This document shows, piece by piece, positions 3 to 18,700 of a stretch of DNA of 39,499 nucleotides. Numbering within the stretch: position 1 is the stretch's first letter; every line of letters begins with the position of its first letter. A program made the translations under genes and the position numbers. The notes beneath the pieces were generated by a model. That model did no database searches, had not been told where the DNA came from, and saw only the letters and a program-made list of their open reading frames with translations. Source of the stretch: an uncultured Opitutales bacterium (GTDB lineage Bacteria > Verrucomicrobiota > Verrucomicrobiia > Opitutales > T3Sed10-336); assembly GCA_964544025.1 (NCBI GenBank), contig CAZJCL010000001.1, positions 55,824 through 95,322 of the forward strand, written 5' to 3'.

Positions 3-460
3 GGATCGATCCTCGACAGCGGCGACGCGGGCGGGTTGGAGGATGTGATCGCGGCGCAACTTCGCATGGTGGCGGGAACCGGAATCGGGGCGGTCAACAA
101 CCCGATCGAAACCTTGGTGGAAACCGTTTCGGCGCGGGCGGCGGGCGGCGGAATTTATTTGGCGGAATCGGACGATCTGACGGTCGGAGCCGTCGGTGTC
201 GAGGTGTGGCGTTTCCTGCCGGATAGCACCACCATCGCTGTTACGGATGCGGCGCAGAGCGATCTTCGCATCACGGGAGGTGACGGCTCCATCGCGGTTT
301 CGGCGGGCGGAAACGTGACGTCGGACGATGGCGACAGCGACGGATTTGCGATTCAGGCTCCGGGAAGCGGCGCGGTTTCCGTGGTCACGTTGAATGGCGG
401 CGATCTGACGTTGAACGCGGCGGTCGATGCCGGAACCGGGAATGCGATTTTCGTTTCCGA
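3..460 (+). repeat. Last recognisable copy of the ~225-aa higher-order unit that makes up gene 3
   Basis: The translation GSILDSGDAGGLEDVIAAQLRMVAGTGIGAVNNPIETLVETVSARAAGGGIYLAESDDLTVGAVGVEV..AVTDAAQSDLRITGGDGSIAVSAGG matches the gene-3 unit landmarks in order: GSILDGGD, GLRLVAG-GIGTLG, IET, LSARAG-GGI, QSD, GNGSIV. Confidence 0.7.
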
Positions 461-3400: not shown

Positions 3401-6400
3401 GGGCGGATCCGCGACGGTGGACGCCACCATCGCGGCTGGCGGAAATCTTGCGATTACCGGGACCGGTGCCATCGATTTGCGGGAAGATATTTTCGCGGCG
3501 GGCAACGTGGAGATCGATGGTTCTGATACGGTGGCGGTCACGGGCCGGCTGGAGGCGGGGAACGATTTGGCGATCACGTCGAGAGGAAAAACCGTTCTTG
3601 CGGCAACGATTGTTAGCGGCGGGGACAGCGCGTTCGCGGCGGATGCCGGTTTCGCGCTGGTTGGTTCTCTCACGGTTGGCGGTGCGCTTACGGTCGAATC
3701 GGGCGAGGCGATCGCGCTGACCGGTCCGGTTGTCGTTGAAGGCTCCGCAACTTTCGGGTCGGTTGGCGACCTCCTCCTCGCGGGGACTTTTGAATCCGGG
3801 GAGAATATGTCCTGGAGCGCGGGAGGTTTGACGGAATTGGCTGGCGACGTGTTCGTTGCCGGCACGCTCGCAATCGTCGGGGTTGGGGCGATCGATCTGG
3901 GCGACCAGATCGAGGTGGGAGGCGCGGTTTCCATCACCGGTGGCGATGCTTTGACGGTTTCGGGAACGTTGACGGCGGGCGAGGAAATCTCGGTGCTGGT
4001 GGAAGGCGCGATTGATTTGGATGGCGACGTTATCAGTGGAGGCGACGCCGATTTCGCGACGGACGCCGGATTCGGGATGGACGGGACGTTGACCGTGGCC
4101 GGAAATCTGGAAATCGCAGCCGGCACCGATGCGAGTGTTTCGGGCGATGTGGATGTGAGCGATTCGAGCGCGGTAACGGCGGGCGGATCGATTTCAGTCG
4201 AAGGTCTTTACGCGGCGGGAAATTCGAGTTTCGACGCGGGAGGAGATTTGTCGGTCGATGCGACCGTGGTTGTTTCCGGGAATCTGTTGGTCGAGGCGGT
4301 GGGAGCGATAGGTTTGGGCGACGATGTCGAAGTGACGCAATCGGTGACGATTACCGGGGGCGCGGTTTCTCTGACCGGAGCGTGGACGGTGGGGACCGGG
4401 TTGACGATTGGCGGGGCCGGTTCGCTTTCGTTGGACGGAGAATTTTTGATTGGCGGGAATGTGTCGCTGAACGGCGGGCAAGGAGTCGCGATTTCGGGGA
4501 CGATGACCACCGGAAGTTTGACGATCGACGCGGATGCGGACGTGGAGTTGACGGGGAATATTTGGGTTATCGGGTCGAGCGGAATTGTTTCCGGCGGGGA
4601 TTTGACGATCGGCGGGACGTTTACGAGCGGCATCGCGACTTTCGCGGTAACCGGGTCGACGAACATTGCGGCCGATGTTTCCGTGATCGGCGATTTGACG
4701 ATTTCCGGTATTGGACGAATCGAGTTGGGCGACGAGGTCGAGATTCGCGGTGATTTGGCGGTGACCGGCGAAAGCGCGGTGGAGATTTTGGGGACGGTTG
4801 ATGTTGATGGAGCCTTTACGATTTCGGCGGCCGGGATGCTGGGTGTCGATGCCGCGGTTGCGGCGGACGGGGACATCGGTTTGACGACGGGAGCGAGTTT
4901 GGTTTTTGCCGGATCTTTGACGGCGGGCGGCAATTTGACGATCGAATCGGCGGACGACGCGACACTTACAGGGGTGGTGACTGTGGTTGGCGGAAGCGTG
5001 TTGACGGCGGGCGGGAATTTGTCGCTCACCGGTTCGATGACGGCGGGAGCCGGAGCGAGTTTCGACGCGGACGGTTCGATCACCGTGATCGCGCAAGTGA
5101 GAGTTACCGGAGGAATTTCGGTGGACGGCGCGGGAGCGATTCTGTTCCGGGAAGAGCTTTCGGCGACCGGCGATATTCTTATCGAAGGAGGCGACGCGTT
5201 TGCCTTGACGGGGATTTTGAGCGCCGGAGGAAATCTTTCGATGGATGTCGTGGGCGCGGTGGCGATCGAGGGAGCGGTTTCGGTGGGCGGCGAGACGACG
5301 TTGAGCAACGATGGCACGTTCGCTCTCGGCGGGACTTTCGCGGGGGCGGGAAGTTTGGTTGCGACGAGCGGAGGAAGCGCGACGTTCGCGGCTACGGTCG
5401 AAGTGGATGGGGCGATCGCGATTTCATCGACGGGCGGGTCGATTTCGATGACCGGCGTTTCGCGGTTGATTTCGGCGACTTCGGGCGTCGCGCTGACCGC
5501 GGGGGATTCCATCACGCTGGGCGGCATTCAAGCGGCGGGGGCTGTGACGGTTACGGCGGGGAGCGGAGCGATTTTGAGCGCGGGAACGGTTCATCGTTCG
5601 ATCGAGTCAGGCGTGGGCGTCGATCTTTCGGCGGCGGCTGGAATCGGTCGCACGGGATCGGGAGCGATTACGGTTCAGGCGCCGGAGTTGCGATTTGAGA
5701 ACTTGCAAGGCGGATCGGTTTATCTGGCGGTGGCCGGCGCGATCGCGGTGACCGGTGGCGCTCTTCATGGAACGGGCAACTTGAATGTTTCGGTGGCCGG
5801 AGGCGGATTGAACGTGGTGGGCGGGATTTCGGTTGCCGGCGGTTCGGCGACGGTTCGCGTGGACGGTCAAGTGTTGCTTGGCGCGGCGGTTTTTGCGGAA
5901 CGGGATATCCGGTTGACCGGTTCCGGGCTGGCGGTGGCGGCGGAGTTCGATGTGACCGCGACGCTTCTGGAATCGGAGAAGGGGCAGATCGAGGCGCGGG
6001 CGATCGGCGATCTGACGTTGCCAGCGGGCAGTTTGATTCACGCGGTTGAGGGATCGGTGCGGTTGCAGTCGGGAGGATCGATGACGGTCGGCGTTATCGA
6101 GGCGGCGGTTCTGGTCGATCTGCGGTCGGGCGGTGATCTGATGGCGGCGGGGAACGCGAGAACGGCGCATGAGATCCGGTCTTCGAGTGTGCGGATGTTT
6201 GCGGCGGGGGATATCGGGGCGGCGGAAGCGCCGGTGTTGTCGGCGGCGGGACGTCTCGATTTCGAGGCGGGCGGAAACGCGACGGTGTTCGAAGCGGACG
6301 ATCTTGAAATCGGCCGGTATGGGTTGCGGTTGACGGACGGAGAGGCGGGCGACGAATTGCGTTTGCGGATGGGCGAAGGGGAGCTTTCGGTGGCGGGCGG

Positions 6401-7457
6401 GGAAACGACCATTCCCGGCGCGGGGGATTTCGTACTCACATCGGATGGAACGGTGACGCTGGGAGGGAAATTGTTAAGCCCGTCGGGGAATATCGTGATC
6501 GACACGTTCGGGTTGCTGGTGAACGGGGAATTGCCGGCGGCGATTGTTTCCGCGCCAAACGGGAAAATTTCGCTGATCGTCGGTGCGGGCGAGTTGGGTG
6601 AGGGATTGAGCCTTTCGGCGGACACGTTCGAGGCGGTAATCGCGGCGGGCGATTTGCGGGTGCTTTTTGCCGGAACGGTTCGCGTGGGCGCGGCGGGGAT
6701 TCATGTGCTCGACGGTTCGGGCTCCGCGGATGTTACCGTGGTGGGCGGCGATCTGGAGCTGACCGGAACGGTTTTGGCGACGGGCGGAATCCGGATCGAT
6801 GTTCCGAACGGGGCGCTGAAGGTTTTGGCCGGCGCTGCGGGCGGAAATATTTTGGACGCGGGCGTTGCTTCGCTGGCGATCGAGCTCGGCGCGGGAGTCG
6901 TCGTGGAGAACGGCGAGCGGATTCAGGTGTTGGCCGGAGAATTCAGTGCCGTGACAACGGCGGGAGATTTGCGGTTCGGGTTGAACGGTCCGTTGACGGC
7001 GATCGGTTCCGGTGGTGTGCGGATCGCGGGCGGTTCCGGCAGGATCGATTTGCGCGTGCCGGTGGGGAATGTCCAGACGTTCGGGGACATCCGTCACGAC
7101 GGCGGGGGCGATATCTTCTTCTCGGTCAACGACGGCTCGCTGGTCATGGAAGCGGGAAGCCGGATGTCGCTCTCGGGAGGCAATCTCGCGATGAACGTGC
7201 GCAACCTGATCGTTATCAGCGAGGTGTTCAGCCTGGGCGGTTCGATCAATATCGTCAGCACGCACAGCTCGATTCTGCGGCAGGTCAATTTGGCTTCCTC
7301 CATTCCAAACATCACCTCTTTGGTCGCTCCGGTCTTCGCGATGTCGGGCACCATCAACCTCCTTATTGACAGCGGTTCGACGACCATCAACGGGCAGACG
7401 GTTTTCCGCTCGCCGACGGATTTATACCTCTTGGTTTCCGGCAGCTATCGCACATGA
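3..7457 (+). CDS. C-terminal 2,484 codons of a giant secreted beta-solenoid-like repeat protein; the 5' end lies upstream of the window
   Basis: The frame with codon starts divisible by 3 is open from nt 3 to TGA 7455-7457. The track start at 36 is only a TTG inside this open frame. The residues before it (GSILDSGDAGG) continue the repeat. The translation is Gly/Ala/Val/Ser/Thr/Asp-rich with ~20-residue rungs (e.g. GNLAIDGDGSIELRDNFDVGGNATITGG). I found no Cys in the 2,473 listed residues. Confidence 0.92.
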   Translation, partial: GSILDSGDAGGLEDVIAAQLRMVAGTGIGAVNNPIETLVETVSARAAGGGIYLAESDDLTVGAVGVEVWRFLPDSTTIAVTDAAQSDLRITGGDGSIAVSAGGNVTSDDGDSDGFAIQAPGSGAVSVVTLNGGDLTLNAAVDAGTGNAIFVSDGDFALNDTTIAAGGTLTIDVAGNAVIAGDATLGGTSAVDVAGNFEMEGTFAGGGDSVFTIGDDATVIGTVAVVGNLEMESGGFIALAGDFSSTGNSDFVSATSFELGGALTVGGALAIDSGASTSLNGDVAVIGASDITSAGRLDIHGTFASGSAVIAVGGETFVDAEVTILGNLAIDGDGSIELRDNFDVGGNATITGGAAVSVFGVLGAGQNLAVDAAGAIVLDGTFAADSAASFKTDAGFDFEGRITTGGPLTIDAATAVVMTGTVEAGGEAMIAAGGGVSLDGDLVAGGDTSVASDGAITVDGSMEVAGDLAFNGVGTVDLGDDIQASGNIVIDTSGAVILAGMIVSGADTTVAALRFSLTGALTAGGALEVETVEEATFAGTVSVVGNHTLSVGGDLVIGGILTVGGDAIWTVGGTTGVNAEVSISGDLDLDGTGAIDLRHDFEIGENVSISGGDAVTVDGVFFAGGDLETAAAGALVWSGQSTVSGESVLQSDTSISLTGDFTVGGGASVSSIGFVAIDGTVEVAGASVFNVGDDLSITGAYESGGATIAVNGATTLDGVLTVSGGLSINGAEAIVLGDEITVTGDVAISGGGTVSVSGDVFVSGEFTMDASDAATLTGDFAVGGNIDWTVGGDLVFDGTLDAEATLTFGAFGNAELSGTISVEGIVTGTANGNLSVAGSFAGEADASFGAGGSATFDGTFVFAGDVQVDGEGTIELSDAVHAGGSLTITGNDAVVLSGDIATGGEFIVRAAGEIRMDGLFESGSDVVWETGEGIVFDGTLAVLNGDFAAEAVLGMTFAGTATVSGSSAVSVGGDLDIVGDVTGGSMDLRSGGAMTIAAAMTITGNLAIHSVGALSVGHTISVSQAFSATGESDVTIGNTGNEIEVGNGFTVVADEAVSVSGQIEIGEDGVFEAGTDLALTGTVSTGGVIQVSAGGAVNVAGTVAIGGLANVAAGGDLTMAGSYTVAGGIALTAGGSATVDATIAAGGNLAITGTGAIDLREDIFAAGNVEIDGSDTVAVTGRLEAGNDLAITSRGKTVLAATIVSGGDSAFAADAGFALVGSLTVGGALTVESGEAIALTGPVVVEGSATFGSVGDLLLAGTFESGENMSWSAGGLTELAGDVFVAGTLAIVGVGAIDLGDQIEVGGAVSITGGDALTVSGTLTAGEEISVLVEGAIDLDGDVISGGDADFATDAGFGMDGTLTVAGNLEIAAGTDASVSGDVDVSDSSAVTAGGSISVEGLYAAGNSSFDAGGDLSVDATVVVSGNLLVEAVGAIGLGDDVEVTQSVTITGGAVSLTGAWTVGTGLTIGGAGSLSLDGEFLIGGNVSLNGGQGVAISGTMTTGSLTIDADADVELTGNIWVIGSSGIVSGGDLTIGGTFTSGIATFAVTGSTNIAADVSVIGDLTISGIGRIELGDEVEIRGDLAVTGESAVEILGTVDVDGAFTISAAGMLGVDAAVAADGDIGLTTGASLVFAGSLTAGGNLTIESADDATLTGVVTVVGGSVLTAGGNLSLTGSMTAGAGASFDADGSITVIAQVRVTGGISVDGAGAILFREELSATGDILIEGGDAFALTGILSAGGNLSMDVVGAVAIEGAVSVGGETTLSNDGTFALGGTFAGAGSLVATSGGSATFAATVEVDGAIAISSTGGSISMTGVSRLISATSGVALTAGDSITLGGIQAAGAVTVTAGSGAILSAGTVHRSIESGVGVDLSAAAGIGRTGSGAITVQAPELRFENLQGGSVYLAVAGAIAVTGGALHGTGNLNVSVAGGGLNVVGGISVAGGSATVRVDGQVLLGAAVFAERDIRLTGSGLAVAAEFDVTATLLESEKGQIEARAIGDLTLPAGSLIHAVEGSVRLQSGGSMTVGVIEAAVLVDLRSGGDLMAAGNARTAHEIRSSSVRMFAAGDIGAAEAPVLSAAGRLDFEAGGNATVFEADDLEIGRYGLRLTDGEAGDELRLRMGEGELSVAGGETTIPGAGDFVLTSDGTVTLGGKLLSPSGNIVIDTFGLLVNGELPAAIVSAPNGKISLIVGAGELGEGLSLSADTFEAVIAAGDLRVLFAGTVRVGAAGIHVLDGSGSADVTVVGGDLELTGTVLATGGIRIDVPNGALKVLAGAAGGNILDAGVASLAIELGAGVVVENGERIQVLAGEFSAVTTAGDLRFGLNGPLTAIGSGGVRIAGGSGRIDLRVPVGNVQTFGDIRHDGGGDIFFSVNDGSLVMEAGSRMSLSGGNLAMNVRNLIVISEVFSLGGSINIVSTHSSILRQVNLASSIPNITSLVAPVFAMSGTINLLIDSGSTTINGQTVFRSPTDLYLLVSGSYRT
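560..5520 (+). repeat. About 11 copies of a ~420-bp (~140-aa) super-repeat, each made of several ~20-aa solenoid rungs
   Basis: The anchor motif G-[ND]-L-x-[IVL]-x-G-x-G-x-I-[ED]-L-x-[DE] recurs at roughly nt 979, 1399, 1755, 2172, 2593, 3013, 3440, 3862, 4279, 4690 and 5108. Spacing is 356-427 bp, mostly 411-427. Confidence 0.7.
7075..7454 (+). other. Non-repetitive C-terminal ~125-aa tail of gene 1, with a distinct composition and codon usage
   Basis: The sequence is ...DIRHDGGGDIFFSVNDGSLVMEAGSRMSLSGGNLAMNVRNLIVISEVFSLGGSINIVSTHSSILRQVNLASSIPNITSLVAPVFAMSGTINLLIDSGSTTINGQTVFRSPTDLYLLVSGSYRT. Codons switch to C-ending forms (ATC, AGC, TTC, GTC, AAC, CTC, ACC). A hand count of nt 7261-7320 gives C21 G10 A12 T17, which reverses the G>C skew of the repeats. 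Confidence 0.55.
7454..7457 (+). promoter_or_regulatory. ATGA stop/start overlap between gene 1 and gene 2 (translational coupling junction)
   Basis: The sequence here is cgcacATGAgat. TGA 7455-7457 ends gene 1 and ATG 7454-7456 starts gene 2. Confidence 0.75.
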
Positions 7458-7540
7458 GATTTTCAGGGCAAACCTTCGTGAAATTGATTTTGGCCGCGGC
7501 GCTCGCGGTTTCCGCTGGATTGTCGCCGGCGGCGGCGCAG
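7454..7540 (+). other. Sec-type signal peptide, with probable SPase I cleavage after AAA/AAQ and no lipobox Cys
   Basis: The N-terminus has a basic start (MRF..K), a hydrophobic core (LILAAALAVSAGL) and an Ala-rich cleavage region (SPAAAQ|DL). Confidence 0.7.
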
Positions 7541-10500
7541 GATCTGCGCGGTCTCGAACGAGCGTTCGACGCGGCGGTGGTGGTCGACGGGGCGCTGGTC
7601 GCTTTGACGGAGGAAGGGCCGATTGTTCGTTCGGTGGATGGCGGGGCGAATTTTCACACGCTTCGGGCACCAACTCCTCCGGATACGTTGCGGGCGCTGG
7701 CGGCGGCGGAAAGGATCGTGGTCGCGGGGGGGAGCAGCGGGTTGCTGTTGCGTTCGGATTTCGGGGTGGCGCCGACGGTTTGGACGGAAGTGGACGACGG
7801 CGGGACGCTCGGGTCGATCCAAGGAATCGCCCACAACGGAAACGGGACTTGGGTGGCGGTAGGGGGAAACGGATTTTCGGGCGGGATTTTGGTTTCATCG
7901 GACGGCGGTATTTCGTGGTCTTCGGCGAGCGACGTTCCGGCTGCGCCGCTTTACGCGGTTGCGTGGAACGCGGTCGCGAACGAATGGATCGCGGTGGGCG
8001 GGGACGGTTTCGATGGCGCGATTTTCCGTTCGGCGAACGCGCAAACGTGGACGCCGGTGCCGGTTCCGGCGGGAACGGGTAATCTTCTCGCGGTCGCCGT
8101 CGATGAAGCGGGGAATGTTCTGGCGGTGGGAGAGGGCGGGGCGATGCTTTCCTCGGAGGATGACGGTGCGACGTTCGAGGCGGTGGCCGGGATTTCGGTT
8201 TCGGAGGATTTGTTGACGGTGGTTTCTTCCGGGCCGAATCAGTGGGTGGTCGCGGGCGAGGGAGGCGTGGCGGTTTCCATCGATGCCGGCGAGTCGATAT
8301 TTTTGTTTGAACCGGATCCTTCGGAACCGGTGATCAAGACCCTTTTGGTGCTTGAGGGTTCGGTCCTGTTTCTCGGGCGGGATTTTATCCCGGCTCCGGA
8401 GATTTCGCCCGCCGGAGGAACTTACGCCGATCCGGTGAGCGTCACGCTGAGCGGCGCGCCGGAGATTTATTACACTTTGGACGGATCGCTGCCGACGGTC
8501 GATTCAACGCTTTTCACGACGCCGTTCGACGTGGCGACATCGGCGATGGTGCGGGCGGTGGCCTGGGACGCGGACGCGGCGATTTATAGTCCGGTCGCTT
8601 CCGCTTATTACACGATCGAAAGCGCTCCTGACGCGGTCGCCGCTCCGTCGATCAGTCCGGTCGGCGGCACTTACGTCGGTTCGGTGGTGGTGACGTTGAG
8701 CGCGGATCCGGGCGTTTCGATTTATTACACAACGAACGGATCGGCTCCGACGACGGCGTCGCAGTTTTACGCCGGGCCGTTCACGTTGACCTCTTCGGCG
8801 ACGGTGCGAGCGGTGGCGTGGGATTGGAGCAAAGCGATTTACAGTGACGAAAGCAGCGCCAGTTACACGGTGGCTCCGGCGGCTCCGGGGATTTCGCCAG
8901 CGGGCGGGGATTTCGTGGGTCCGACCTCGATTACGCTCAGCGCGGCTTCCGGGGCGGCGATATTTTATACTCTCGACGGCTCGGAACCCGATGGAGATTC
9001 GACGTTGTATGAGGGGCCGTTCACGCTGGATAAACCGACGACGGTGAAGGCGGTGGCGCGGGCCGGTGGAATTTTCAGCGACGTATCCACGTCCGTTTTT
9101 ACGATCGCGCCGACCGCTCCGGCGATTGGACCGGCGGCCGGGACGCATGTCGGTCCGGTGACCGTAACGCTCACCGCGCAACCCGGGGCGGAGATTTTTT
9201 ACACGGTTGACGGAACGACGCCGTCGGAGGTTTCGACTCCCTACACGGGGCCTTTTGCGGTTTCCGCTTCGTCGACGGTTCGGGCGATCGCGCGGGCGCA
9301 TGGCGTGAACAGTCCGGTGGCGTCGGCGAGTTATTTGATCGCTCCGTTTGCCCCGCAGATTTCGCCCGTCGCCGGGACTTATTTCGGTCCGGTCAATGTA
9401 ACTATCGAGGCCGAAGCGGGAACGGAGATTTTTTACACGGTTGACGGATCGACGCCGACGACGGGTTCGGAACCGTATGTCGGGCCATTTTCGATCACGA
9501 ATTCTTTGACCGTGCGGGCGATCGCCAGTCGAGGCGGTGTGAGCGGGCCGGTGGCGACTACGAATTACACGATCGGGCCGCAAGCTCCGTCGATTTCGCC
9601 AGCTCCGGGAACCTACGTGGGGCCGGTTTCGGTGACGTTGAATGCCCAGGGGGGAGCGGCGATTTATTATACGTTGGATGGAAGCGCGCCGACGACGGGT
9701 TCGATTTTGTATGCGGGACCATTCTCGGTGGCGACGTCCGGCACGGTGCGGGCGATGGCACGGGCGAACGGGGTTTCGAGTCCGGTGGCGTCGGCGGCGT
9801 ATGTGATCGCGCCGTTCGCGCCGGAGATTTCGCCGGGAGAAGGGACGTATGTGGGATCCGTGGCGGTGACCTTGAGCGCGCAGCCGGGAGCGACGATTTA
9901 TTACACGCTGAACGGCGCGAATCCGACGACGGCTTCGGCGGTTTATTCGGGACCCTTTAATGTGACGTCCACTTCGACAGTGAAAACGATGGCGCGGTTG
10001 AACGGGGTAAACGGTCCGGTGGCCTCGCGTGTTTTCACCGTTGCTCCTCCGGCGCCGACGATTTCTCCGGCGGGAGGAACGCATGTCGGACCGGTTTCCG
10101 TGAGCTTGAGCGGGCAGTCGGGAGCGACCCTTTATTATACGCTTGATGGTTCGGAGCCGACGACGGGGTCGACGGTTTATTCGGGACCTTTCAATGTTGC
10201 GGTCACGTCGACGGTGAAGGCGATGGCGCGGCGGAACAATGTCAATGGACCGGTCGCGTCGTCGACGTTTACCATCGCGCCGTTTGCGCCGACTATTTCG
10301 CCGGCGGCGGGGACGTATGTCGGACCGATTTCGGTTTCGGTGGCGGCGCAGACGGGGGCGACGATTTATTACACGGTCGACGGTTCCGAGCCGACGACGG
10401 CTTCGCCCGTTTATGCGGGGGCGATTCCGGTTTCCGTGACTTCGACAGTGAAGGCGATGGCGCGGTTGAACGGGGTGAACGGTCCAGTCGCTTCGGCGGC

Positions 10501-13500
10501 CTACACGATCGCTCCGACGGCGCCGACGATTTCGCCGGAAGCGGGAATGCACGTCGGGCCGGCGACGGTGACGATAACGGCCCAGCCCGGTGCGACGATT
10601 TACTACACTCTGAACGGTTCGGATCCGACGACGAGTTCGCCGGTGTATTCGAATCCGCTGACGGTTTCGACGTCGTCGACGGTGAAGGCGATGGCGCGTT
10701 TTAACGGGGTGAACGGGCCGATCGCGTCCGCTTCCTACACGATCGCGCCGTTTGCTCCGGTGGCGTCGCCGGAGGCGGGTTCATATGTCGGGCCGACGCG
10801 GGTGACGCTGACGGCGCAGTCGGGGGCGACGATTTTTTATACGTTGGACGGGAGCAATCCGACGACGAGTTCCGCGACTTATACGACACCGTTTACGCTG
10901 AACGCTCCGACGACGGTGAAAGCGATGGCGCGAGCCAACAACGTCGACAGTCCGACGATGACGGCGGATTACATAATCGCGCCGAACGCGCCGGCAATTT
11001 CGCCCGCGGCGGGAACTTATGTCGGGCCGACGCAGGTGACGTTGAGCGCGCAAGGCGGCGCGACGATTTTTTATACGGTCGACGGAAGCGAGCCGACGAC
11101 GGATTCGGCGGTTTATTCGGGGCCATTGACTATTTCCGAATCGGCGACGATCCGGGCGATGGCGCGGGCGCATTCGGTGAACAGTCCGGTTTCGGCGGCC
11201 GCGTTTACGATCGCGCCGTTCGCGCCGGAGATCACACCGGCGGCGGGAACGCATGTCGGGCCGATTTCGGTTTCGATGACCGCGCAGGCGGGGGCGACGA
11301 TTTATTATACGGTGGACGGAACGGAACCGACGACGGAATCGGCGCAGTATAATGGTCCTTTCACCGTGTCGGCTTCCGCGACGGTGAAAGCGAGGGCGAG
11401 ATTGAACGGGGTCGACGGACCGGTTGCCACGGCGGCGTACACGATCGCGCCTTTCGCGCCGGAGATCGCTCCGGAACCGGGGACTTACGTCGGGCCGCTT
11501 TCGGTGACTCTCGCGGCGCCACCGGGCGCGACGATTTATTACACGACGGATGGAAGCAATCCGACGACGACTTCAGCGATTTACGCGACGCCGTTTACGA
11601 TCTTGAAGTCGTCGACGGTGAAAGCGATGGCGCGGGCGAACGGAGTGAACGGTCCGGTGGCGTCGGCGGAATATTTCATCGCGCCTTTCGCTCCGGTGAT
11701 CGCGCCGGCGTCGGGAACTTATGTTGGGCCGATTACGATTTCGTTGAGCGCGCAGGCTGGAGCGACGATTTTTTATACGACGAACGGAGCGGAACCGACG
11801 ACGGCTTCTTCGGTTTATTCCGGGAGTTTCACTTTGGCGCAATCGGCGACGGTGAAAGCGATGGCGCGTTTGAACAACGTGAACGGGCCGGTGGCTTCGG
11901 CGGCTTATACGATCGCGCCATTCGCGCCGGAGATTTCGCCGGCGGGCGGCACGTATGTGGGTTCGGTTTCGGTAATGCTGTCGGCGCAACCGGGGGCGGA
12001 GATTTATTATACGATCGATGGAACGCAGCCGACGACGGGTTCGAGTTTGTATGTCGCGCCGTTCACGGTGTCGTCTTCGTCGACCGTGATAGCGATGGCG
12101 CGCGTGAACGGGGTGAACGGTCCGACGGCATCGGCGAGTTACACGATCGCTCCGTTCGCCGTGGAAATTTCACCGGCCGTGGGGACTTATGTCGGGCCGA
12201 TTTCGGTGACGTTGAGCGCGCAGGGCGGGGCGACGATTTATTATACGGTGGATGGAAGCGATCCGACGACGGGGTCTGCGGTGTATGGCGCACCGTTCAC
12301 GGTTTCCGAGTCGGCGACGGTGAAGGCGATGGCGCGATTGAACGGAGTGAACGGTCCGGTGGCGTCGGCGAGTTATGTGATCGCGCCGCTGGCACCGACG
12401 ATTTCGCCGGCTTCGGGAACGTATGTTGGTTCGACGCTGGTTACCTTGAGTGCGCATCCGGATGCTTCGATTTTCTACACATTGGACGGCAGCGAACCGA
12501 CGCCGGAATCGCTAGTTTATTCGGGGCCGTTCACGGTTTCCGAATCGGCGACGGTGAAAGCGATGGCGCGATTGAATGGCGTGAACGGTCCGGGGGCGTC
12601 GGCGAGTTACACGATCGCGCCGTTGGCTCCGGTGTTTTCTCCCGCGCCGGGAACTTACACGGGACCGACTTCGGTGACGTTGTCGGCGCAAGCGGGGGCC
12701 ACGATTTTTTACACGGTCGACGGATCGGAGCCAACGGCGTCTTCGGCCGTGTATTCGGAACCGCTGACGGTATCGCGTTCGGCGACGGTGAAGGCGATGG
12801 CGCGGTTGCATGAGGTGAATGGTCCTGTCGCGTCGGCAGCGTATGCCATCGTTCCTCTTGCGCCGGTTATTTCTCCGGAAGCAGGGACGTATTATGGAGC
12901 GGTGAATGTTTCGATCAGCGCTCCGGAAGGCGCGGCGATTCATTATACGATCAACGGAGAGGATCCGACCGTTTCCTCGCCGGTTTACACTTCGCCGATC
13001 CGGGTTTCGAACGGGGCGACGGTAAAAGCGATCGCGCGGCGGGACGGGTTGAACAGCGCGGTCGCTTCGGCGGCGTATTCGGTGCTGCCTTTGACGGTCG
13101 ATTTCACTCCGGCGGGCGGATCGTATGCGGAGCCGGTGGCGGTGGAATTGAGCGCGCCGGGAGGAGCGGAAATTTATTATACGCTCGATGGAAGCGATCC
13201 GACGACTGCTTCGCCGGTTTATTTGTTTCCGATCGAAATATCCGTTTCGACGACGGTGAAAGCGATGGCGCGTTTGAACGGGGTGAACGGTCCGGTGGCG
13301 TCGGCCCGTTATAACATCGCTCCGGCGGCTCCCTTGATCTCGCCGGCGTCGGGAGCATATGTCGGATCGGTTTCGGTGACGATTTCGACGCAGGCGGGGG
13401 CGACGGTTTATTATACCTTGAACGGAAGCGAACCGACGACGGGATCGCCGGTTTATAGTTCTCCGATTCCGGTTTCAGATTCGGCGACGGTGAAAGCGAT

Positions 13501-15664
13501 GGCGAGGTTGGACGGCTTGAACAGCGCGGTGAGTTCGGCGGTTTACACGATTTCGCCTTTGGCCGTCGAGGTTTCGCCGCCAGCCGGAACATATCCGGAA
13601 CCGGTTTCGGTGGAGATGAGCGGACCGGCGGGAGCGGAGATTTATTACACGGTGGATGGAAGCGAGCCGACGACGGCGTCGGCTGTTTATTCCGGGCCGA
13701 TCAAGATTTCGGTATCGACGACGGTGAAGGCGGTGGCGCATTTAAACGATGTCGCGGGGCCGGTGACGACGGCGGTTTATCGGATCGCTCCGGGCGCGCC
13801 GACCATTGCGCCGGGAACGGGAACTTACGTGGGGCAGGCTGTGGTGACTCTCGGGGCGCAGGAGGGGGCGGCGATTCATTACACTTTGGATGGGACGGAA
13901 CCGACGGCGGGTTCTGCGGTGTATTCGGGGCCGATCACGATTTCGACCTCGACGACGTTGAAGGCGATGGCGCGTTTGGACGGTGTGAATGGGCCGACAG
14001 CATCGGCCAACTACACGATCGCGCCGCCGGCTCCTGAGTTTTCGCCAAGTTCCGGGACTTATGAGGGATCGGTTTCGGTCACTTTGTCGGCGCGGGAAGG
14101 GGCGTTGATTTATTACACGACCGACGGAACGCAGCCTTCGGTGGATTCGAACGTTTATACGGTGCCGGTGCTGGTGTCGAATTCGACCACGATTCGGGCG
14201 ATGGCGCGTTTGAACGGGGTGAACGGTCCGGTGGCGTCGGCGGATTACGCGATCGTTCCGCTGGCACCGGTCATTTCGCCGGGTTCGGGGCCATATGCGG
14301 GGGCGGTTTCGGTGACGATTTCCGCGCAGGCCGGATCGACGATTTATTACACGCTGGACGGTTCCGAGCCGACGACATCTTCGCCGGTTTATACGGGACC
14401 TTTTTCGATTTCGACCGCGCTGACGGTGAAGGCGATGGCGCGGCTTGGCGAATTGAACAGCGAGATCGCTTCGGCCAGTTACACATTTTCGCCGCTGGTT
14501 GTCGGGATTTCGCCGGGCTCGGGAACGTATTCCGGGCCGGTTTCGGTGGTGTTGACGGCACCTTTCGGGGCGGCGATCCATTACACTTTGGACGGGAGCA
14601 ATCCGACGACCTCCTCGCCGGTTTATTCTTCGCCGGTTGAGATTTCGGAATCGACGACGGTTCGGGCGATGGCGCGGTTGAGCGGAGTCAACGGGCCGGT
14701 GTCGTCGGCACATTTTGTCATCGAATCGGAAGGCGAGACGGAACAGCCGTATCGGTTGGCGATTGATCCGCTTCCGAACGGGTTTTTGCGTTTGACGCTT
14801 TCGGGTTCGGAGGAAGGGAAGCATTATCAGTTGCAGACTTCCGAGGATCTCAAGAACTGGTCGAATTCCGGGGCTCCAATTGCGGGCACGGGGGCGGCTT
14901 TGATTTGGGAAGTGGCGGCGGAAGGGGAGCGGGCGTTTTTCCGGGTTTCCACGACGACGGCGCTCGTCGCCGCGCCGGTTATCTCTCCGGACGGGGGAAT
15001 GTTTGCCGGTCCGGTTACCGTGACGATCGATGGCGGAGCGGGAGCGCAGGTGTTTTACACATTGGACGGGTCGGTGCCGACGACGGATTCGACCCTTTAT
15101 GCGGGACCGTTTGAAATGGCGGTTTCCGGAACGGTTCGGGCGGTGTCGGTTTCCGGCGGGATTTTGAGTTCGGTTTCGTCGGCGACTTTTGTGATCGAGC
15201 CTTCCTCGCCGTCGCAGCCGCGTTTGACGATAGTTCCGGAAACGGGTGGGAAGTTGCGTTTGACATTATCGAACGCGGTGGCGGGCGTTTTCTATCAATT
15301 GCAAACGACGATGGATCTGGCGGTTTGGTCGGATATCGAAGCTCCGAAATCGGGGGCGGGCGGAGATCTGGTTTGGAGTATCGCGGATGATGGGTCGCGG
15401 CGGTTTTTCCGGGTTGTCGAGGTTCCGGCTCCGGCGGCCGCCGAGGCGCTTTCGCTGGGGATTTTGGCGGTTTCGTCTTCCGAATTGCGGTTGACGCTGA
15501 CGGGCGGGGAAAGCGGGAGCTATTACCAGTTGCAGACCTCGGTCGATCTTCGCGAGTGGTTTGATTTGGAGGAGAGGCGTTTGGGGACCGGTCGGGATCT
15601 GATCTGGACTGTCGCGCTCAGCGATCCGGCGCGTTTTTATCGGGTCGTGGCCATGCCAGAGTGA
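7454..15664 (+). CDS. 2,736-aa secreted multidomain protein: signal peptide, Asp-box beta-propeller, 28 CHB_HEX_C/Fn3_assoc-like Ig-fold domains and three C-terminal YQLQTS modules
   Basis: This is a complete ORF from ATG 7454 to TGA 15662-15664. The N-terminus MRFSGQTFVKLILAAALAVSAGLSPAAAQ is signal-peptide-like. The repeats carry the I[YF]YT-DGS-PT..S..Y motif typical of the chitobiase/beta-hexosaminidase C-terminal and Fn3-associated domain families. Confidence 0.95.
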   Translation: MRFSGQTFVKLILAAALAVSAGLSPAAAQDLRGLERAFDAAVVVDGALVALTEEGPIVRSVDGGANFHTLRAPTPPDTLRALAAAERIVVAGGSSGLLLRSDFGVAPTVWTEVDDGGTLGSIQGIAHNGNGTWVAVGGNGFSGGILVSSDGGISWSSASDVPAAPLYAVAWNAVANEWIAVGGDGFDGAIFRSANAQTWTPVPVPAGTGNLLAVAVDEAGNVLAVGEGGAMLSSEDDGATFEAVAGISVSEDLLTVVSSGPNQWVVAGEGGVAVSIDAGESIFLFEPDPSEPVIKTLLVLEGSVLFLGRDFIPAPEISPAGGTYADPVSVTLSGAPEIYYTLDGSLPTVDSTLFTTPFDVATSAMVRAVAWDADAAIYSPVASAYYTIESAPDAVAAPSISPVGGTYVGSVVVTLSADPGVSIYYTTNGSAPTTASQFYAGPFTLTSSATVRAVAWDWSKAIYSDESSASYTVAPAAPGISPAGGDFVGPTSITLSAASGAAIFYTLDGSEPDGDSTLYEGPFTLDKPTTVKAVARAGGIFSDVSTSVFTIAPTAPAIGPAAGTHVGPVTVTLTAQPGAEIFYTVDGTTPSEVSTPYTGPFAVSASSTVRAIARAHGVNSPVASASYLIAPFAPQISPVAGTYFGPVNVTIEAEAGTEIFYTVDGSTPTTGSEPYVGPFSITNSLTVRAIASRGGVSGPVATTNYTIGPQAPSISPAPGTYVGPVSVTLNAQGGAAIYYTLDGSAPTTGSILYAGPFSVATSGTVRAMARANGVSSPVASAAYVIAPFAPEISPGEGTYVGSVAVTLSAQPGATIYYTLNGANPTTASAVYSGPFNVTSTSTVKTMARLNGVNGPVASRVFTVAPPAPTISPAGGTHVGPVSVSLSGQSGATLYYTLDGSEPTTGSTVYSGPFNVAVTSTVKAMARRNNVNGPVASSTFTIAPFAPTISPAAGTYVGPISVSVAAQTGATIYYTVDGSEPTTASPVYAGAIPVSVTSTVKAMARLNGVNGPVASAAYTIAPTAPTISPEAGMHVGPATVTITAQPGATIYYTLNGSDPTTSSPVYSNPLTVSTSSTVKAMARFNGVNGPIASASYTIAPFAPVASPEAGSYVGPTRVTLTAQSGATIFYTLDGSNPTTSSATYTTPFTLNAPTTVKAMARANNVDSPTMTADYIIAPNAPAISPAAGTYVGPTQVTLSAQGGATIFYTVDGSEPTTDSAVYSGPLTISESATIRAMARAHSVNSPVSAAAFTIAPFAPEITPAAGTHVGPISVSMTAQAGATIYYTVDGTEPTTESAQYNGPFTVSASATVKARARLNGVDGPVATAAYTIAPFAPEIAPEPGTYVGPLSVTLAAPPGATIYYTTDGSNPTTTSAIYATPFTILKSSTVKAMARANGVNGPVASAEYFIAPFAPVIAPASGTYVGPITISLSAQAGATIFYTTNGAEPTTASSVYSGSFTLAQSATVKAMARLNNVNGPVASAAYTIAPFAPEISPAGGTYVGSVSVMLSAQPGAEIYYTIDGTQPTTGSSLYVAPFTVSSSSTVIAMARVNGVNGPTASASYTIAPFAVEISPAVGTYVGPISVTLSAQGGATIYYTVDGSDPTTGSAVYGAPFTVSESATVKAMARLNGVNGPVASASYVIAPLAPTISPASGTYVGSTLVTLSAHPDASIFYTLDGSEPTPESLVYSGPFTVSESATVKAMARLNGVNGPGASASYTIAPLAPVFSPAPGTYTGPTSVTLSAQAGATIFYTVDGSEPTASSAVYSEPLTVSRSATVKAMARLHEVNGPVASAAYAIVPLAPVISPEAGTYYGAVNVSISAPEGAAIHYTINGEDPTVSSPVYTSPIRVSNGATVKAIARRDGLNSAVASAAYSVLPLTVDFTPAGGSYAEPVAVELSAPGGAEIYYTLDGSDPTTASPVYLFPIEISVSTTVKAMARLNGVNGPVASARYNIAPAAPLISPASGAYVGSVSVTISTQAGATVYYTLNGSEPTTGSPVYSSPIPVSDSATVKAMARLDGLNSAVSSAVYTISPLAVEVSPPAGTYPEPVSVEMSGPAGAEIYYTVDGSEPTTASAVYSGPIKISVSTTVKAVAHLNDVAGPVTTAVYRIAPGAPTIAPGTGTYVGQAVVTLGAQEGAAIHYTLDGTEPTAGSAVYSGPITISTSTTLKAMARLDGVNGPTASANYTIAPPAPEFSPSSGTYEGSVSVTLSAREGALIYYTTDGTQPSVDSNVYTVPVLVSNSTTIRAMARLNGVNGPVASADYAIVPLAPVISPGSGPYAGAVSVTISAQAGSTIYYTLDGSEPTTSSPVYTGPFSISTALTVKAMARLGELNSEIASASYTFSPLVVGISPGSGTYSGPVSVVLTAPFGAAIHYTLDGSNPTTSSPVYSSPVEISESTTVRAMARLSGVNGPVSSAHFVIESEGETEQPYRLAIDPLPNGFLRLTLSGSEEGKHYQLQTSEDLKNWSNSGAPIAGTGAALIWEVAAEGERAFFRVSTTTALVAAPVISPDGGMFAGPVTVTIDGGAGAQVFYTLDGSVPTTDSTLYAGPFEMAVSGTVRAVSVSGGILSSVSSATFVIEPSSPSQPRLTIVPETGGKLRLTLSNAVAGVFYQLQTTMDLAVWSDIEAPKSGAGGDLVWSIADDGSRRFFRVVEVPAPAAAEALSLGILAVSSSELRLTLTGGESGSYYQLQTSVDLREWFDLEERRLGTGRDLIWTVALSDPARFYRVVAMPE
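7541..8389 (+). other. BNR/Asp-box (Ycf48- or sialidase-like) beta-propeller, about 6 blades
   Basis: Blade signatures recur roughly every 45-50 aa: IVRSVDGGANF, LLRSDFG..TVW, LVSSDGGISW (a classic S-x-D-x-G-x-x-W Asp-box), IFRSANAQTW, MLSSEDDGATF, VAVSIDAGESIF. Confidence 0.6.
8390..14725 (+). repeat. 27 contiguous in-frame tandem copies of a 234-bp (78-aa) CHB_HEX_C/Fn3_assoc-like domain
   Basis: I counted 27 consecutive units of the form AP[FTLPN]AP-ISP--GTYVGP-SV-LSAQ-GATI[YF]YT[LV]DGS-PTT-S-VYSGPF-V--S-TVKAMARLNGVNGPVASA-YTI. A unit counted by hand has 78 residues. The central units (about 8-19) are the most uniform. Confidence 0.92.
14741..15661 (+). repeat. C-terminal region: three ~75-aa 'L-RLTL-G----YQLQTS-DL--W---------G--L-W-------RFFRV' modules, with a 28th CHB_HEX_C-like domain between modules 1 and 2
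   Basis: Module 1 spans about 14741-14958 (FLRLTLSGSEEGKHYQLQTSEDLKNWS...RAFFRV). Domain 28 spans about 14959-15205 (..QVFYTLDGSVPTTDS..). Module 2 spans about 15206-15425 (KLRLTLSNAVAGVFYQLQTTMDLAVWS...RRFFRV). Module 3 spans about 15426-15661 (ELRLTLTGGESGSYYQLQTSVDLREWF...ARFYRV). Confidence 0.75.
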
Positions 15665-15719
15665 TTTTTTCGAATATTAGTTGTTAATTTTACCTCCACC
15701 GTCTAGCACCATCACCTGC
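15665..15719 (+). other. The only intergenic spacer in the window (55 bp, AT-rich relative to its flanks); a possible internal promoter or translation-initiation region for gene 3
   Basis: The sequence is ttttttcgaatattagttgttaattttacctccaccgtctagcaccatcacctgc. A T6 run directly follows the stop. There is a -35-like TTGTTA at 15681-15686 but no convincing -10 box, Shine-Dalgarno sequence or hairpin. Confidence 0.3.
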
Positions 15720-15791
15720 ATGTCAAAAGCCCGAATCGTCAGCTTTGCTGTGGAGGCCCTGGAGTCTCGCATATTGCTGTCGGCGGCGCCT
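15720..15791 (+). other. LEPR-XLL-like N-terminal motif (variant LESRILLSA)
   Basis: The N-terminus is MSKARIVSFAVEALESRILLSAAP, with the motif LESRILLSA at nt 15759-15785. The NCBIfam 'LEPR-XLL domain' is a short N-terminal signature (LEPRxLLSA) of very large repetitive secreted proteins, mainly from Planctomycetes and relatives (recalled from memory, not searched). Confidence 0.6.
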
Positions 15792-18700
15792 CTCGATTCC
15801 ATGTTGGCTGGTGAGGAGGCAGCGCCGGAGGCGGTTTACGTTTCGGCGATCGAGGTGGAGGAGACGGTTTGTGGCGCGGCGGCGATGGAGATGGAGGAGG
15901 GGAGCGAGGAGCTCTTCGACGGGGCGGCGGATTTGGAGTCGACGGCGTCTCCCTTGGAGGAACCGGGGGAAATGGCTATGCAGCCTTTCTCTGAAGTGGA
16001 GACGAGCGCTCCGGCGATTTTTCAAAGCGGTTTTACGATTATCGATCCGGGAACGACGCATACGTTTCGTTCGACGACGGGCGGCATTTTTTTCTCGGGT
16101 CCGGGATCGATTGACGGAACGCCGGGAGCGACGGAGGAGAACGTGCGTTTTATTTCGGCGACGGCGATTTCCATCGACGTTCCGATCGGCGGAGCGAGTC
16201 CGATTCACGATTTGATCGTTTCGGCCGGATCGAACATTTTTTTCGGCGGGAGCATTCACATCACCGGCGATTTGATCGTGGAGCGGGGGGCGCAGGTGAC
16301 GTTCGACCGCGACGTGACGGTGGAGGGGAACATCATTATCGGAGACGAATCGGCGCCAGGGGATGTGGGAGGCGTGACCTTCAACGCGAACAGCATCGTC
16401 AACGCCGGGGGCGAAATTCGTATTCATACGAGCGGTGGAGTGGAGTTTCGCAACAGCGTGGGCGCGACGATGGTTCCCGATTTGGTGGAAGTTGTCGCGG
16501 GCGGGACGGTCAATTTCTTTCACGAACTGACGGCGGGAACGGCGGCGGTTTCCGGGGCGAATGTGAATTTCGAGCGGGCGGTGCGCGTGGACGAAGCGTC
16601 GATCACGGCGGCGGATTTGCTGACGATTGGGAACGTATTCGAGATTGGAAACGGGGACGCGGTACTGACGGCGAACCGGGTCGGTTTCACGGGCGGTTAC
16701 GGGTCGTTGCAATCGACGGGCGCGGCGTCGACGTTGACGATCCGGCCTTTCACGGCGTCGCGGGCGATCGGGATCGGGGATCCTTCGGGCGGGACTTTCA
16801 ACCGGTTGCAGATTTCGCATGTGGAGTTGAACGCGATCAACAACGGATTTCGGGAGTTGATCATCGGAGATTTGGTGGCGGGGACGGGGGAAGTCCGGAT
16901 CGCGAATATCGGTTTGGCGCAAACGGTGGCAATCGCGCAGATCCAGAACGCGGCGACATTCGCGGGCGGATCGGTGATTGTGGAAGGACGCGTGGATGTG
17001 GATGGTCTCGCGGATTATCTTCGTTTGGTGGCGCGGACGGGGGATGTGGTGGTCGACGAGGCGATCAACCAATCCGCGACGGAGCGGAATGGATGGGTGC
17101 GGATCGAGGCGGCGCGGGATATCGTCGTGAACCGGCCGGTTTTCGCGCTGGACCGGATTTCGCTGACGGCGGGTTATTTTGGTGGAAACGGGAGCGTGAT
17201 CGTCCATTCGACGGGAGCGGATTCCGGGCAGTTGTGGACCACGGGAACGGGTCCGGCTTTTTCGGAGCGGAGGATTGAAATAAGCGCGGGCGAGGGTGGA
17301 GGAGATATTGTTTGGACGGACGGTTCCGGGGCGGTGACTTTTTGGGCGGCGGGTTCGGGCGGGGCGATTGCGATGCGGGCGCCGGCGGGGGCGATCAGGC
17401 AAAACGGCGGCGTGATTCGCGCCGAAGTGCTGGCGGTTCGGTCGTTTGGAGATGTTTCCATTGTGTCGGCGGAGGTGGACCGGATCGGGCTGGTGGAGTT
17501 TTCGGGCGCGGCGTTGTTTTCCGGAGTTGCGGATTCGATCGACGGTATTGTGATCGCGGGGCCGGGCTCGTTGAATTTTGCCGGATTGCAATCTTTGGTT
17601 GTTGATCGTGTGACCACCGATGGCGGCGACATAACGTTGATCACGAGGGCGGTGATCGGAGCGGATTTGACGCTTGGCCGAATTGCGTCCGGGAGCGGAA
17701 ATATTTCGTTGAGCGCCGACGGATCCATTGTGGATGGTTTGGCGGGGGCGGGTATTGTGAATCTTGCCACGAGCGGTCGGGTCGCGTTGATCGCGAGCTT
17801 GGGAATCGGCGGTTCGGGGAGCGCGGATATCGATACGCGTGTTGGAGGTTTGGCCGCGACGAATTTGGCGACCGGGGGGATTTACATTCACGACCGCGGG
17901 AATCTGGTGATCGATGGCGCGGTTGAGACGCTGGCCGGGGACGGATCGATTATTCTCGTGGCGGAGGGCGCGGTTTTCACGGTGAACGCGACGGTTTCGG
18001 CGCATGGCGGAGGGGACGTTTTGCTCGATGCGCCGGCGGGGGACCTTGTTTTGGATGCGGCGGTGAGGTCGGCGGAAGGACATTTGACGATCCGGGCGGA
18101 GAACAATCTCGCGTTGGCGGGTTCCGCTTCCGTCTGGACGGGTGCTCCTGGGACGATTTTGCTGCGGACGGCGACGGGGGCGATTTCGATGAGCGGAACT
18201 TCGGCGGTCGCGGCGACGGGATCGAATTTGCGGGTCGAGGGCGGCGGGGATATCGGGTTGGGAAATCTTTCGGCGGAGCGGGTGGCGGTGGTTTCGGCGG
18301 GAGGATCGATTTTCAATTCCAGCGGATCGGCGGCGAATGTGACGGCGGACGAGTTGCGGCTTGAAGCGGCGAAAGCGGTCGGTTCGGCGGCGGTTGCGTT
18401 GACGACGGATGTTGCGCGAATCGCGGCTTTTGCGGGAAGCGCGGATGGGGTGTCGAAGGGGATTTATCTTGCGCAAGACGGCGCGGTTTCGGTTTCGGAA
18501 ATCGGGCCGGTCTCGGTTGAGGCGGTTTCGGCGGAGGGTGGTTCGAGCACGGTTGCGGATGTTGGAGGGTTGAGCGGACTTCGGACGGGGAACAACGGCA
18601 ATATCGTGTTGGTCGCGGCGGGCGAGGCTCGCCTCGACGATGGAGCGGGGGATGGAATCGCGGTATCGGCGGACGGTTCGGGGCGGGTTCGGATCGAGGC

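Follow-up and report, generated by a model that had tools for sequence, protein, structure and literature searches.

The 39,499-nucleotide stretch of DNA analysed here (the window; contig CAZJCL010000001.1, positions 55,824 to 95,322, from an uncultured Opitutales bacterium) carries an intact open reading frame (ORF) at 7454..15664 on the plus strand, which encodes a protein of 2,736 amino acids (aa) and lies between two much larger genes of the same strand. The protein begins with a Sec-type signal peptide (MRFSGQTFVKLILAAALAVSAGLSPAAAQ; aa 1-29, 7454..7540, +), read from the sequence and without a lipobox Cys, and continues with an Asp-box/Ycf48-like beta-propeller of about seven blades (aa 30-312, 7541..8389, +), assigned from PSII_BNR, AlphaFold2, Foldseek and its Asp-boxes. 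Twenty-seven tandem Ig-like domains of the CHB_HEX_C_1/Fn3_assoc type (hereafter CHB domains; aa 313-2427, 8390..14734, +), found by Pfam and motif scan, are followed by the first copy of a C-terminal module (C-module; aa 2428-2502, 14735..14959, +), an FN3-like beta-sandwich of an uncatalogued family. A 28th CHB domain (aa 2508-2585, 14975..15208, +), seen by Pfam and unit alignment, precedes C-module copy 2 (aa 2584-2658, 15203..15427, +) and copy 3 (aa 2661-2735, 15434..15658, +), the latter ending one residue short of the stop.

The signal peptide was modelled with a helix at aa 7-20 at low pLDDT, and equivalent N-termini are present in the orthologues described below. Since the protein contains no cysteine (n = 0), it is not a lipoprotein. 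Pfam and NCBIfam scans of all 2,736 residues gave no catalytic family. They gave no RTX family either and the N-terminus looks classically Sec-dependent, so the protein does not resemble RTX cargo of a type I secretion system (T1SS); the autotransporter beta-barrel PF03797 is absent from it by Pfam, and the protein is thus not itself a type V autotransporter. The scans confirm a secreted protein without catalytic domain, composed of a propeller head, a 28-domain Ig-like rod and three small tail modules, which is presumably extracellular.

The first-pass annotation, made from the letters of the sequence, had listed the signal peptide, the 27 + 1 count, three C-terminal modules, the lack of a catalytic domain and an ATGA coupling to the gene upstream, and Pfam/NCBIfam scans, motif scans and the sequence itself agree on each. 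The families PF13290 and PF13287 and the Ycf48/BNR-like propeller that it had named were likewise borne out by Pfam and Foldseek, and the Pfam scan it had suggested places the repeats in CHB_HEX_C_1/Fn3_assoc.

The propeller matches PSII_BNR (PF14870) marginally, with 30.5-33 bits against a cut-off of 27 over aa ~108-272, and its three Asp-boxes lie at aa 60, 148 and 234. AlphaFold2, given 15 sequences, returned the propeller fold that a structure prediction had been suggested to look for, with about seven four-stranded blades (pLDDT 86, pTM 0.82). The best Foldseek matches in the Protein Data Bank (PDB) are structures of Ycf48 (8am5_S, 5ojr, 2xbg; E ~1e-9, TM 0.62, 15-17% identity), followed by GH74 and generic propellers. 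Ycf48/HCF136, a photosystem II assembly factor, shares with the head of the window protein a seven-bladed Asp-box propeller and a PSII_BNR score just above the cut-off; it lacks an Ig array or C-module, and the context in the window is unrelated to photosynthesis. The NCBIfam Ycf48 equivalog PRK13684 reaches 26.8-30.2 bits against a cut-off of 326. The propeller is thus of Ycf48-type fold and not a Ycf48 orthologue.

That the protein is an enzyme on a stalk, with the propeller acting as a BNR-type glycoside hydrolase (GH74- or sialidase-like) held off the cell, is very improbable. GH74 propellers do occur among the Foldseek matches, and weak matches to the NCBIfam 'glycosylhydrolase' family F510_1955 (NF045728) and to BNR_2 point the same way, but these scores fall far under their cut-offs (41-51 bits versus 175, and 19.5 versus 31.4). 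GH74 enzymes require a cleft between two propellers, whereas here there is one propeller of ~280 aa with a GH74-normalised TM of 0.15-0.28, the sialidase RIP motif was not found in a motif scan of the protein, and the best match, Ycf48, is non-enzymatic. Because of the sub-cut-off family scores, the single propeller and the missing RIP motif, the head is not a credible glycosidase.

Searched alone against 5.8 billion proteins, the propeller (aa 29-312) finds 26 relatives, and these are short. The four closest align with 100% of the propeller at 50-56% identity, in proteins of only 390-474 aa, and relatives at ~24-40% identity have 328-459 aa. Nine propeller orthologues (24-56% identity, 328-474 aa) carry at most one CHB domain, and when aligned they show a common plan of signal peptide, propeller, 0-1 CHB domain and exactly one C-module, with which the protein ends. 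No other long member of the Ycf48-like propeller family was found in the collection, and an exact look-up of the protein gave no record. The short propeller and C-module proteins (P0122-P0133 except P0127) therefore have in common with the window protein the signal peptide, the propeller, the C-module and a position after a large gene, and differ from it in domain number, with 0-1 CHB domain and a single C-module where it has 28 and three.

Genomic context was read for ten relatives, nine of which carry the C-module: P0122, P0123 (at two places), P0124, P0126 and P0130-P0133. Their nine loci come from different samples (L001-L006, L008, L010 and L011). The tenth, P0134 (L007), has a more distant propeller without C-module and lies in an unrelated context. 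A large gene of the same strand stands directly upstream of the orthologue in all nine loci, and in five of them (L001-L004 and L006) the two genes overlap by 4 bp or 1 bp. In L001-L003, a gene of 472 or 474 aa overlaps by 4 bp a gene of at least 4,774 or at least 4,981 aa. The relative in L004 (38% identity) overlaps a 5,400-aa gene, also by 4 bp, on a contig which ends just past the propeller gene; the upstream gene of L005 encodes at least 2,092 aa, the overlap in L006 is the one of 1 bp, and L010 and L011 have large upstream genes that are cut.

Downstream, a gene with a LEPR-XLL N-terminus follows in L001 (5,791 aa), L003, L005 (at least 2,766 aa) and L006 (at least 1,967 aa); the relative in L002 is that of L001, and its downstream gene was assigned a later start. 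In L010 the downstream gene (2628-4385) encodes a signal-peptide protein with PATR repeats (41.8 bits against a cut-off of 27), and its counterpart in L011 resembles it, without a Pfam match of its own. Directly after a 32%-identical relative lies a gene for a stand-alone autotransporter beta-barrel of 340 aa (L008 1950-2972 and L009 1802-2422; PF03797, 108 bits), which hints at a link between the cassette and type V secretion. At L011 (4592-5793) the 328-aa P0132 is split from its C-module, the latter being called separately as a 72-aa ORF (5575-5793); probably this reflects a frameshift or a sequencing error.

The two neighbours in the window fit the same arrangement. Upstream lies the 3' part of a giant solenoid gene (3..7457, +; at least 2,484 aa), an open frame with a 20-aa coil period which leaves the window at its start. 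Its TGA shares the four bases ATGA with the ATG of the propeller gene, a 4-bp overlap. The last ~680 aa are its conserved part, being 49-55% identical to the upstream genes of L001, L003 and L005; no Pfam or NCBIfam family was found in the part inside the window, and a comparison with the Chlamydia Pmp middle domain gave a weak, non-significant match (E = 0.12). Downstream, frame 3 is open from 15681 to the end of the window, and the 5' part of a second giant gene (15720..39497, +; at least 7,926 aa) starts at the ATG at 15720 with MSKARIVSFAVEALESRILLSAAP and leaves the window at its end. This protein belongs to the LEPR-8K/LEPR-XLL family NF012209 (23.7 bits against a cut-off of 17) through aa 9-30 (VEALESRILLSAAP), a motif which is conserved in L001, L003, L005, L006 and L012. 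From about aa 1500 it has a 225-aa repeat, no Pfam family was found in it, and over its first 2,800-3,300 aa it shares 46-50% identity with the genes downstream in L001 and L005. Judged by these alignments, the giants flanking the gene in the window are orthologous to those of L001, L003 and L005. Neither CHB units nor C-modules were found in the parts of the two giants that lie inside the window, and a PDB sequence search with pieces of both came back empty. LEPR-XLL giants of Vibrio, of ~8,000 aa, carry C-terminal RTX/serralysin domains (PMC10868602).

Because propeller, C-module, gene position and orthologous flanking giants agree, the window gene is best described, at the level of sequence comparison, as the lineage-specific expanded orthologue of a small conserved accessory gene, in which the CHB domain went from one to 28 copies and the C-module from one to three. 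The accessory family as we define it here, there being no database model for it, comprises a signal peptide, a Ycf48-like propeller that aligns from end to end, one or more C-modules at the C-terminus and a gene position directly after a large same-strand gene, and the window gene has all four. Both this relationship and the downstream same-strand LEPR-XLL giant are additions to the first-pass annotation. Many units of the array share 40-50% identity with the lone CHB domain of the short proteins and none stands out, a pattern consistent with amplification of the resident domain in situ.

The multi-module end is not confined to this contig. A 1,162-bp contig from another sample (L012; JGI 3300009095) has 78% DNA identity to window positions 15248-16386 and contains C-modules 2 and 3, the intergenic spacer and then the start of a LEPR-XLL giant, so a multi-module tail exists in a second organism. 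GTDB genomes, searched with the propeller alignment and the LEPR-XLL N-terminus, and JGI metagenome contigs, searched with the propeller and the C-terminus of the upstream giant, yielded no relatives; each of these searches used two short peptide patterns, which makes the negatives weak evidence. Neighbours of the PATR and LEPR-XLL kinds may point to a bacterium of the PVC type.

The array itself is highly regular. Pfam finds CHB_HEX_C_1 (PF13290) in 28 stretches with 1,585 bits against a cut-off of 22, and Fn3_assoc (PF13287) in 28 coinciding stretches with 1,294 bits against a cut-off of 23. By motif scan the first units lie at aa 313-390, 398-475 and 478-555, and 24 more abut one another with an exact period of 78 aa up to aa 2427. 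The unit consensus is P.ISPa.GTYvGpvsVtlsAq.GAtIyYT.DGs.PTT.S.vY.gPf.vs.S.TVkAMARlngVNgPVASA.YtIaP.A., rich in Ala, Thr, Ser, Val, Pro and Gly, and conservation within it resides mostly in the core and turn motifs IYYT, DGS-PT and TVKA.

Compared with each other, the units show a mean protein identity of 53% (maximum 74%) and a mean DNA identity of 63% (maximum 77%). Exact direct repeats in the gene reach 44 bp at most, and Tandem Repeats Finder (TRF) matches across the array are of 65-70%. Identity at third codon positions is 0.55, compared with 0.72 at positions 1 and 2, and unit identity is independent of the distance between units, i.e., there is no lag structure. From the codon-position contrast, the missing lag structure and the shortness of the longest exact repeat it follows that the array is old and has been maintained under purifying selection, neither recently homogenised nor likely to be an assembly artefact.

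The first-pass annotation had described near-identical 234-bp repeats and had been concerned that they might have collapsed or expanded in the assembly. With a maximum DNA identity of 77% they are far from near-identical, which makes collapse or expansion unlikely, and the concern is largely unfounded. Some grounds for it exist: the units are in phase, so that a mis-join between two of them would keep the frame, and the exact protein is carried by a single contig in the 5.8-billion-protein search. Set against these grounds are the distinctness of each unit, the strong divergence at synonymous sites and the reproduction of the C-terminal end and downstream junction at 78% identity in the independent sample of L012. 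A copy number produced by repeat expansion or collapse during assembly is therefore extremely unlikely.

The units abut without flexible linkers, and their short Pro-rich junctions (consensus YtIaP.AP.ISP), which had been read as the mark of an extended rod, are compatible with one. An Ig-like domain is ~3.5-4 nm long; taking this general value for each domain, the 27 tandem units may span about 100 nm.

Long CHB arrays had been thought rare, the domain being expected in one or a few copies on glycosidases and other secreted enzymes. This impression holds for solved structures, as the unit profile matches only two, 6q63 (a beta-hexosaminidase) and 8ayr (an F5/8-type protein), with one stretch each, and these single stretches account for the impression. 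It does not hold for metagenomes. When the whole protein was searched against the 5.8 billion proteins and domains were counted with a hidden Markov model (HMM) built from the 28 units, the suggested search for homologues with 20 or more domains was productive: ten other proteins have at least 20 copies (43, 42, 36, 29, 23, 23, 22, 22, 21 and 20), with P0011 as a further 20-copy protein, and uninterrupted runs reach 40, 40, 33 and 29. CHB_HEX_C_1 is thus not restricted to low copy numbers on glycosidases: metagenomes repeatedly contain arrays of 20-43 copies.

The heads ahead of these arrays include proteases, lectins and NHL and RCC1 propellers. P0002, P0004 and P0005 carry a Por tail of the type IX secretion system (T9SS), P0003 and P0007 an NHL propeller, and P0009 a sedolisin head. 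The metagenome array proteins (P0002-P0005, P0007 and P0009) have the same repeat family as the window protein, at 34-43% identity and in runs comparable or longer, but other heads (NHL, protease and others) and other C-termini (T9SS C-terminal domain, IPT-like); none has the Ycf48-like propeller or the C-module. In P0007 a signal peptide and an NHL propeller precede 23 copies, which is an independent occurrence of the propeller-on-CHB-stalk design. The window protein belongs both to these multi-domain CHB_HEX_C_1 proteins of metagenomes and to the undescribed propeller and C-module accessory family. Its architecture is therefore less unusual than first thought, and what is new is the conserved cassette, the expansion from one to 28 and the uncatalogued C-module.

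The array also raises the alternative of an adhesin or glycan binder that is multivalent and stands alone. The 28 CHB domains would then form a binding surface, gaining avidity from many weak carbohydrate-binding sites, and the proximity of the giants would reflect no more than co-regulation of surface proteins. The CHB family adjoins glycosidases and carbohydrate-binding modules (CBMs), with solved examples in a beta-hexosaminidase and an F5/8-type protein; long arrays recur behind many different heads, as a portable module would; and the units are under purifying selection. However, PF13290 is not known to have a carbohydrate-binding function, and what is conserved in the units is chiefly their core and turn motifs, as would be the case for a scaffold. 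Synteny and translational coupling across orthologues of 24-56% identity also argue for a functional link with the giants. This alternative is considered unlikely, although it deserves more weight than an enzymatic head.

The three C-modules, of ~75 aa each, are 41-47% identical to one another and share the motif LRLTL..G..YQLQTS.DL..W...G...L.W......FFRV. Copy 2 is conserved in L012 at 78% DNA identity, as described above. AlphaFold2 models the module as a small beta-sandwich (pLDDT 89, obtained for copy 3), and Foldseek against the PDB and viral models gives weak, generic FN3/Ig-like matches (E >= 0.01, TM 0.5-0.66). Pfam and NCBIfam, searched at E up to 1, and a PDB sequence search gave no match to the module. 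A word-indexed profile search had returned one fragment only, hence an exhaustive profile search of 1.84 billion representatives was made, which found 658 proteins with the module at E up to 1e-3 and 41 at E up to 1e-10.

The module (consensus YQLQTS.DL..W...FYRV) is widespread and usually ends its protein: in 97 of the 159 matches fetched it is followed by no more than 7 residues, and it often comes in one to three tandem copies. Its partner domains are fn3, F5/8 type C, CBM, BACON, GH9, LRR_5, DUF11 and Laminin_G_3, which are typical of secreted and surface proteins. This is the behaviour of a general docking or sorting domain at the C-terminus. The FN3-like family to which the module belongs is uncatalogued, and its 658 representative clusters merit a family model. 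It resembles the C-terminal sorting domains of T9SS cargo (Por_Secre_tail) in being a small beta-sandwich which ends many unrelated secreted proteins. It differs from them in occurring in one to three tandem copies, in having no known T9SS context and in having no match to PF18962 or TIGR04183/TIGR04131 at E up to 1, and the protein cannot be classed as T9SS cargo on that basis.

Taken as a whole, the window protein is on balance probably a secreted, non-catalytic head-on-stalk surface protein which serves as an accessory or partner of the neighbouring giant fibres. The partner role is read from the conserved and often translationally coupled placement of the gene between giants; the domain identities, folds, orthology, synteny and repeat age are observed, while the extracellular location, the anchored end, the spacer role and the interaction are suggested by them. 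The Sec signal peptide would export the protein, the N-terminal Ycf48/Asp-box-type propeller may act as a head which binds a protein or glycan ligand, and the 27 abutting CHB_HEX_C_1 domains would form a stiff spacer of ~100 nm. The three FN3-like C-modules may form the end by which the protein is attached to the cell envelope or to a partner. The protein would then work with the neighbouring giant fibres, for instance as a tether, tip or docking factor, and amplification of the resident CHB domain would have moved the head far from the tail, over a distance comparable to the fibres.

A similar spacer logic is known from giant adhesins with Ig-like extenders, such as Marinomonas MpIBP (~120 BIg repeats), Salmonella SiiE (53 BIg) and Pseudomonas LapA. 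In these proteins, too, an uninterrupted run of small Ig-like domains with short junctions lies between a binding module and a cell-attached end, no catalytic domain is present, and a ligand-binding head is projected outward. Their repeats are BIg/Big_2 or cadherin-like, whereas those of the window protein are CHB_HEX_C_1/Fn3_assoc; they have a C-terminal T1SS signal and RTX, whereas the window protein has a Sec signal peptide. The window protein further differs in its N-terminal Ycf48-type propeller head and in being an accessory encoded between much larger fibres.

Several points weigh against the accessory reading. The interaction with the giants and the identity of the anchored end are inferred, and no secretion route across the outer membrane could be identified within the window. 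Short orthologues adjoin equally giant neighbours (5,400-5,791 aa), hence the cassette does not require a long spacer, which is instead a retuning specific to one lineage, and simple length matching between rod and fibre is unsupported. In addition, a Ycf48/BamB-like propeller beside autotransporter genes could be a periplasmic assembly factor instead.

In that case, the protein would act in the periplasm or at the outer membrane in assembling the giant or type V-like neighbours, as a BamB/Ycf48-like scaffold to which the array is a lineage-specific add-on. The best fold match is indeed an assembly factor, the coupling to the giant upstream is tight, and the next gene encodes an autotransporter beta-barrel in L008/L009 and a PATR passenger-type protein in L010. 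The periplasm is ~25-30 nm wide, and a ~100-nm rod does not fit into it. Moreover, the protein lacks a lipobox or Cys, the partner domains of the C-module are those of extracellular proteins, and the 27-30 bits for the NCBIfam Ycf48 equivalog are remote from its cut-off of 326. An assembly factor is therefore quite improbable.

Returning to the accessory reading, a more specific version of it is possible, and we put it forward tentatively. The gene may be a conserved component of an undescribed giant-fibre system built on LEPR-XLL/PATR solenoids of 5,000-8,000+ aa, sometimes with a separate autotransporter barrel. As its tip, tether or docking factor, the protein would use its propeller to bind the fibres and its C-module to bind the envelope, and its reach would have been retuned from a few nm to ~100 nm by 28-fold amplification in one lineage. 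If so, the cassette would offer a natural series of length variants for studying how giant fibres are held and used.

Few large genes of environmental bacteria are as poorly understood as those for giant repetitive surface proteins. A small conserved gene for a Sec-type propeller protein, linked to giant solenoid genes, is a candidate accessory factor of a fibre system whose parts have not been described, and the natural series of 0, 1 and 28 spacer domains in an orthologous cassette could serve to test spacer or 'ruler' ideas on Ig-like arrays.

Two other identities suggested by profile matches were rejected. DUF499 anti-phage models match the protein (NF042962, 297 bits against a cut-off of 1,200; PADLOC PDLC02192, 187 bits), but through only ~50 profile positions (841-893), repeatedly. 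These NCBIfam and PADLOC models match every CHB unit (8390-15208) through the same positions; evidently they contain a CHB_HEX_C-like stretch, which could yield false defence annotations elsewhere. A phage origin had only a single weak match to a PHROG of unknown function in its favour.

A scan for promoters and terminators found sites no more numerous than chance, with no above-chance terminator-like signal around the gene. GC skew is strongly positive throughout the window, up to +0.47. Long minus-strand ORFs near the gene have no Pfam match, are rich in Arg and were dismissed as antisense artefacts of the G-rich plus-strand giants. They lie within 15723-39296 (e.g., 20529-27464 and 31707-35627) and reach 2,311 aa, such that an ORF caller could misannotate them as genes.

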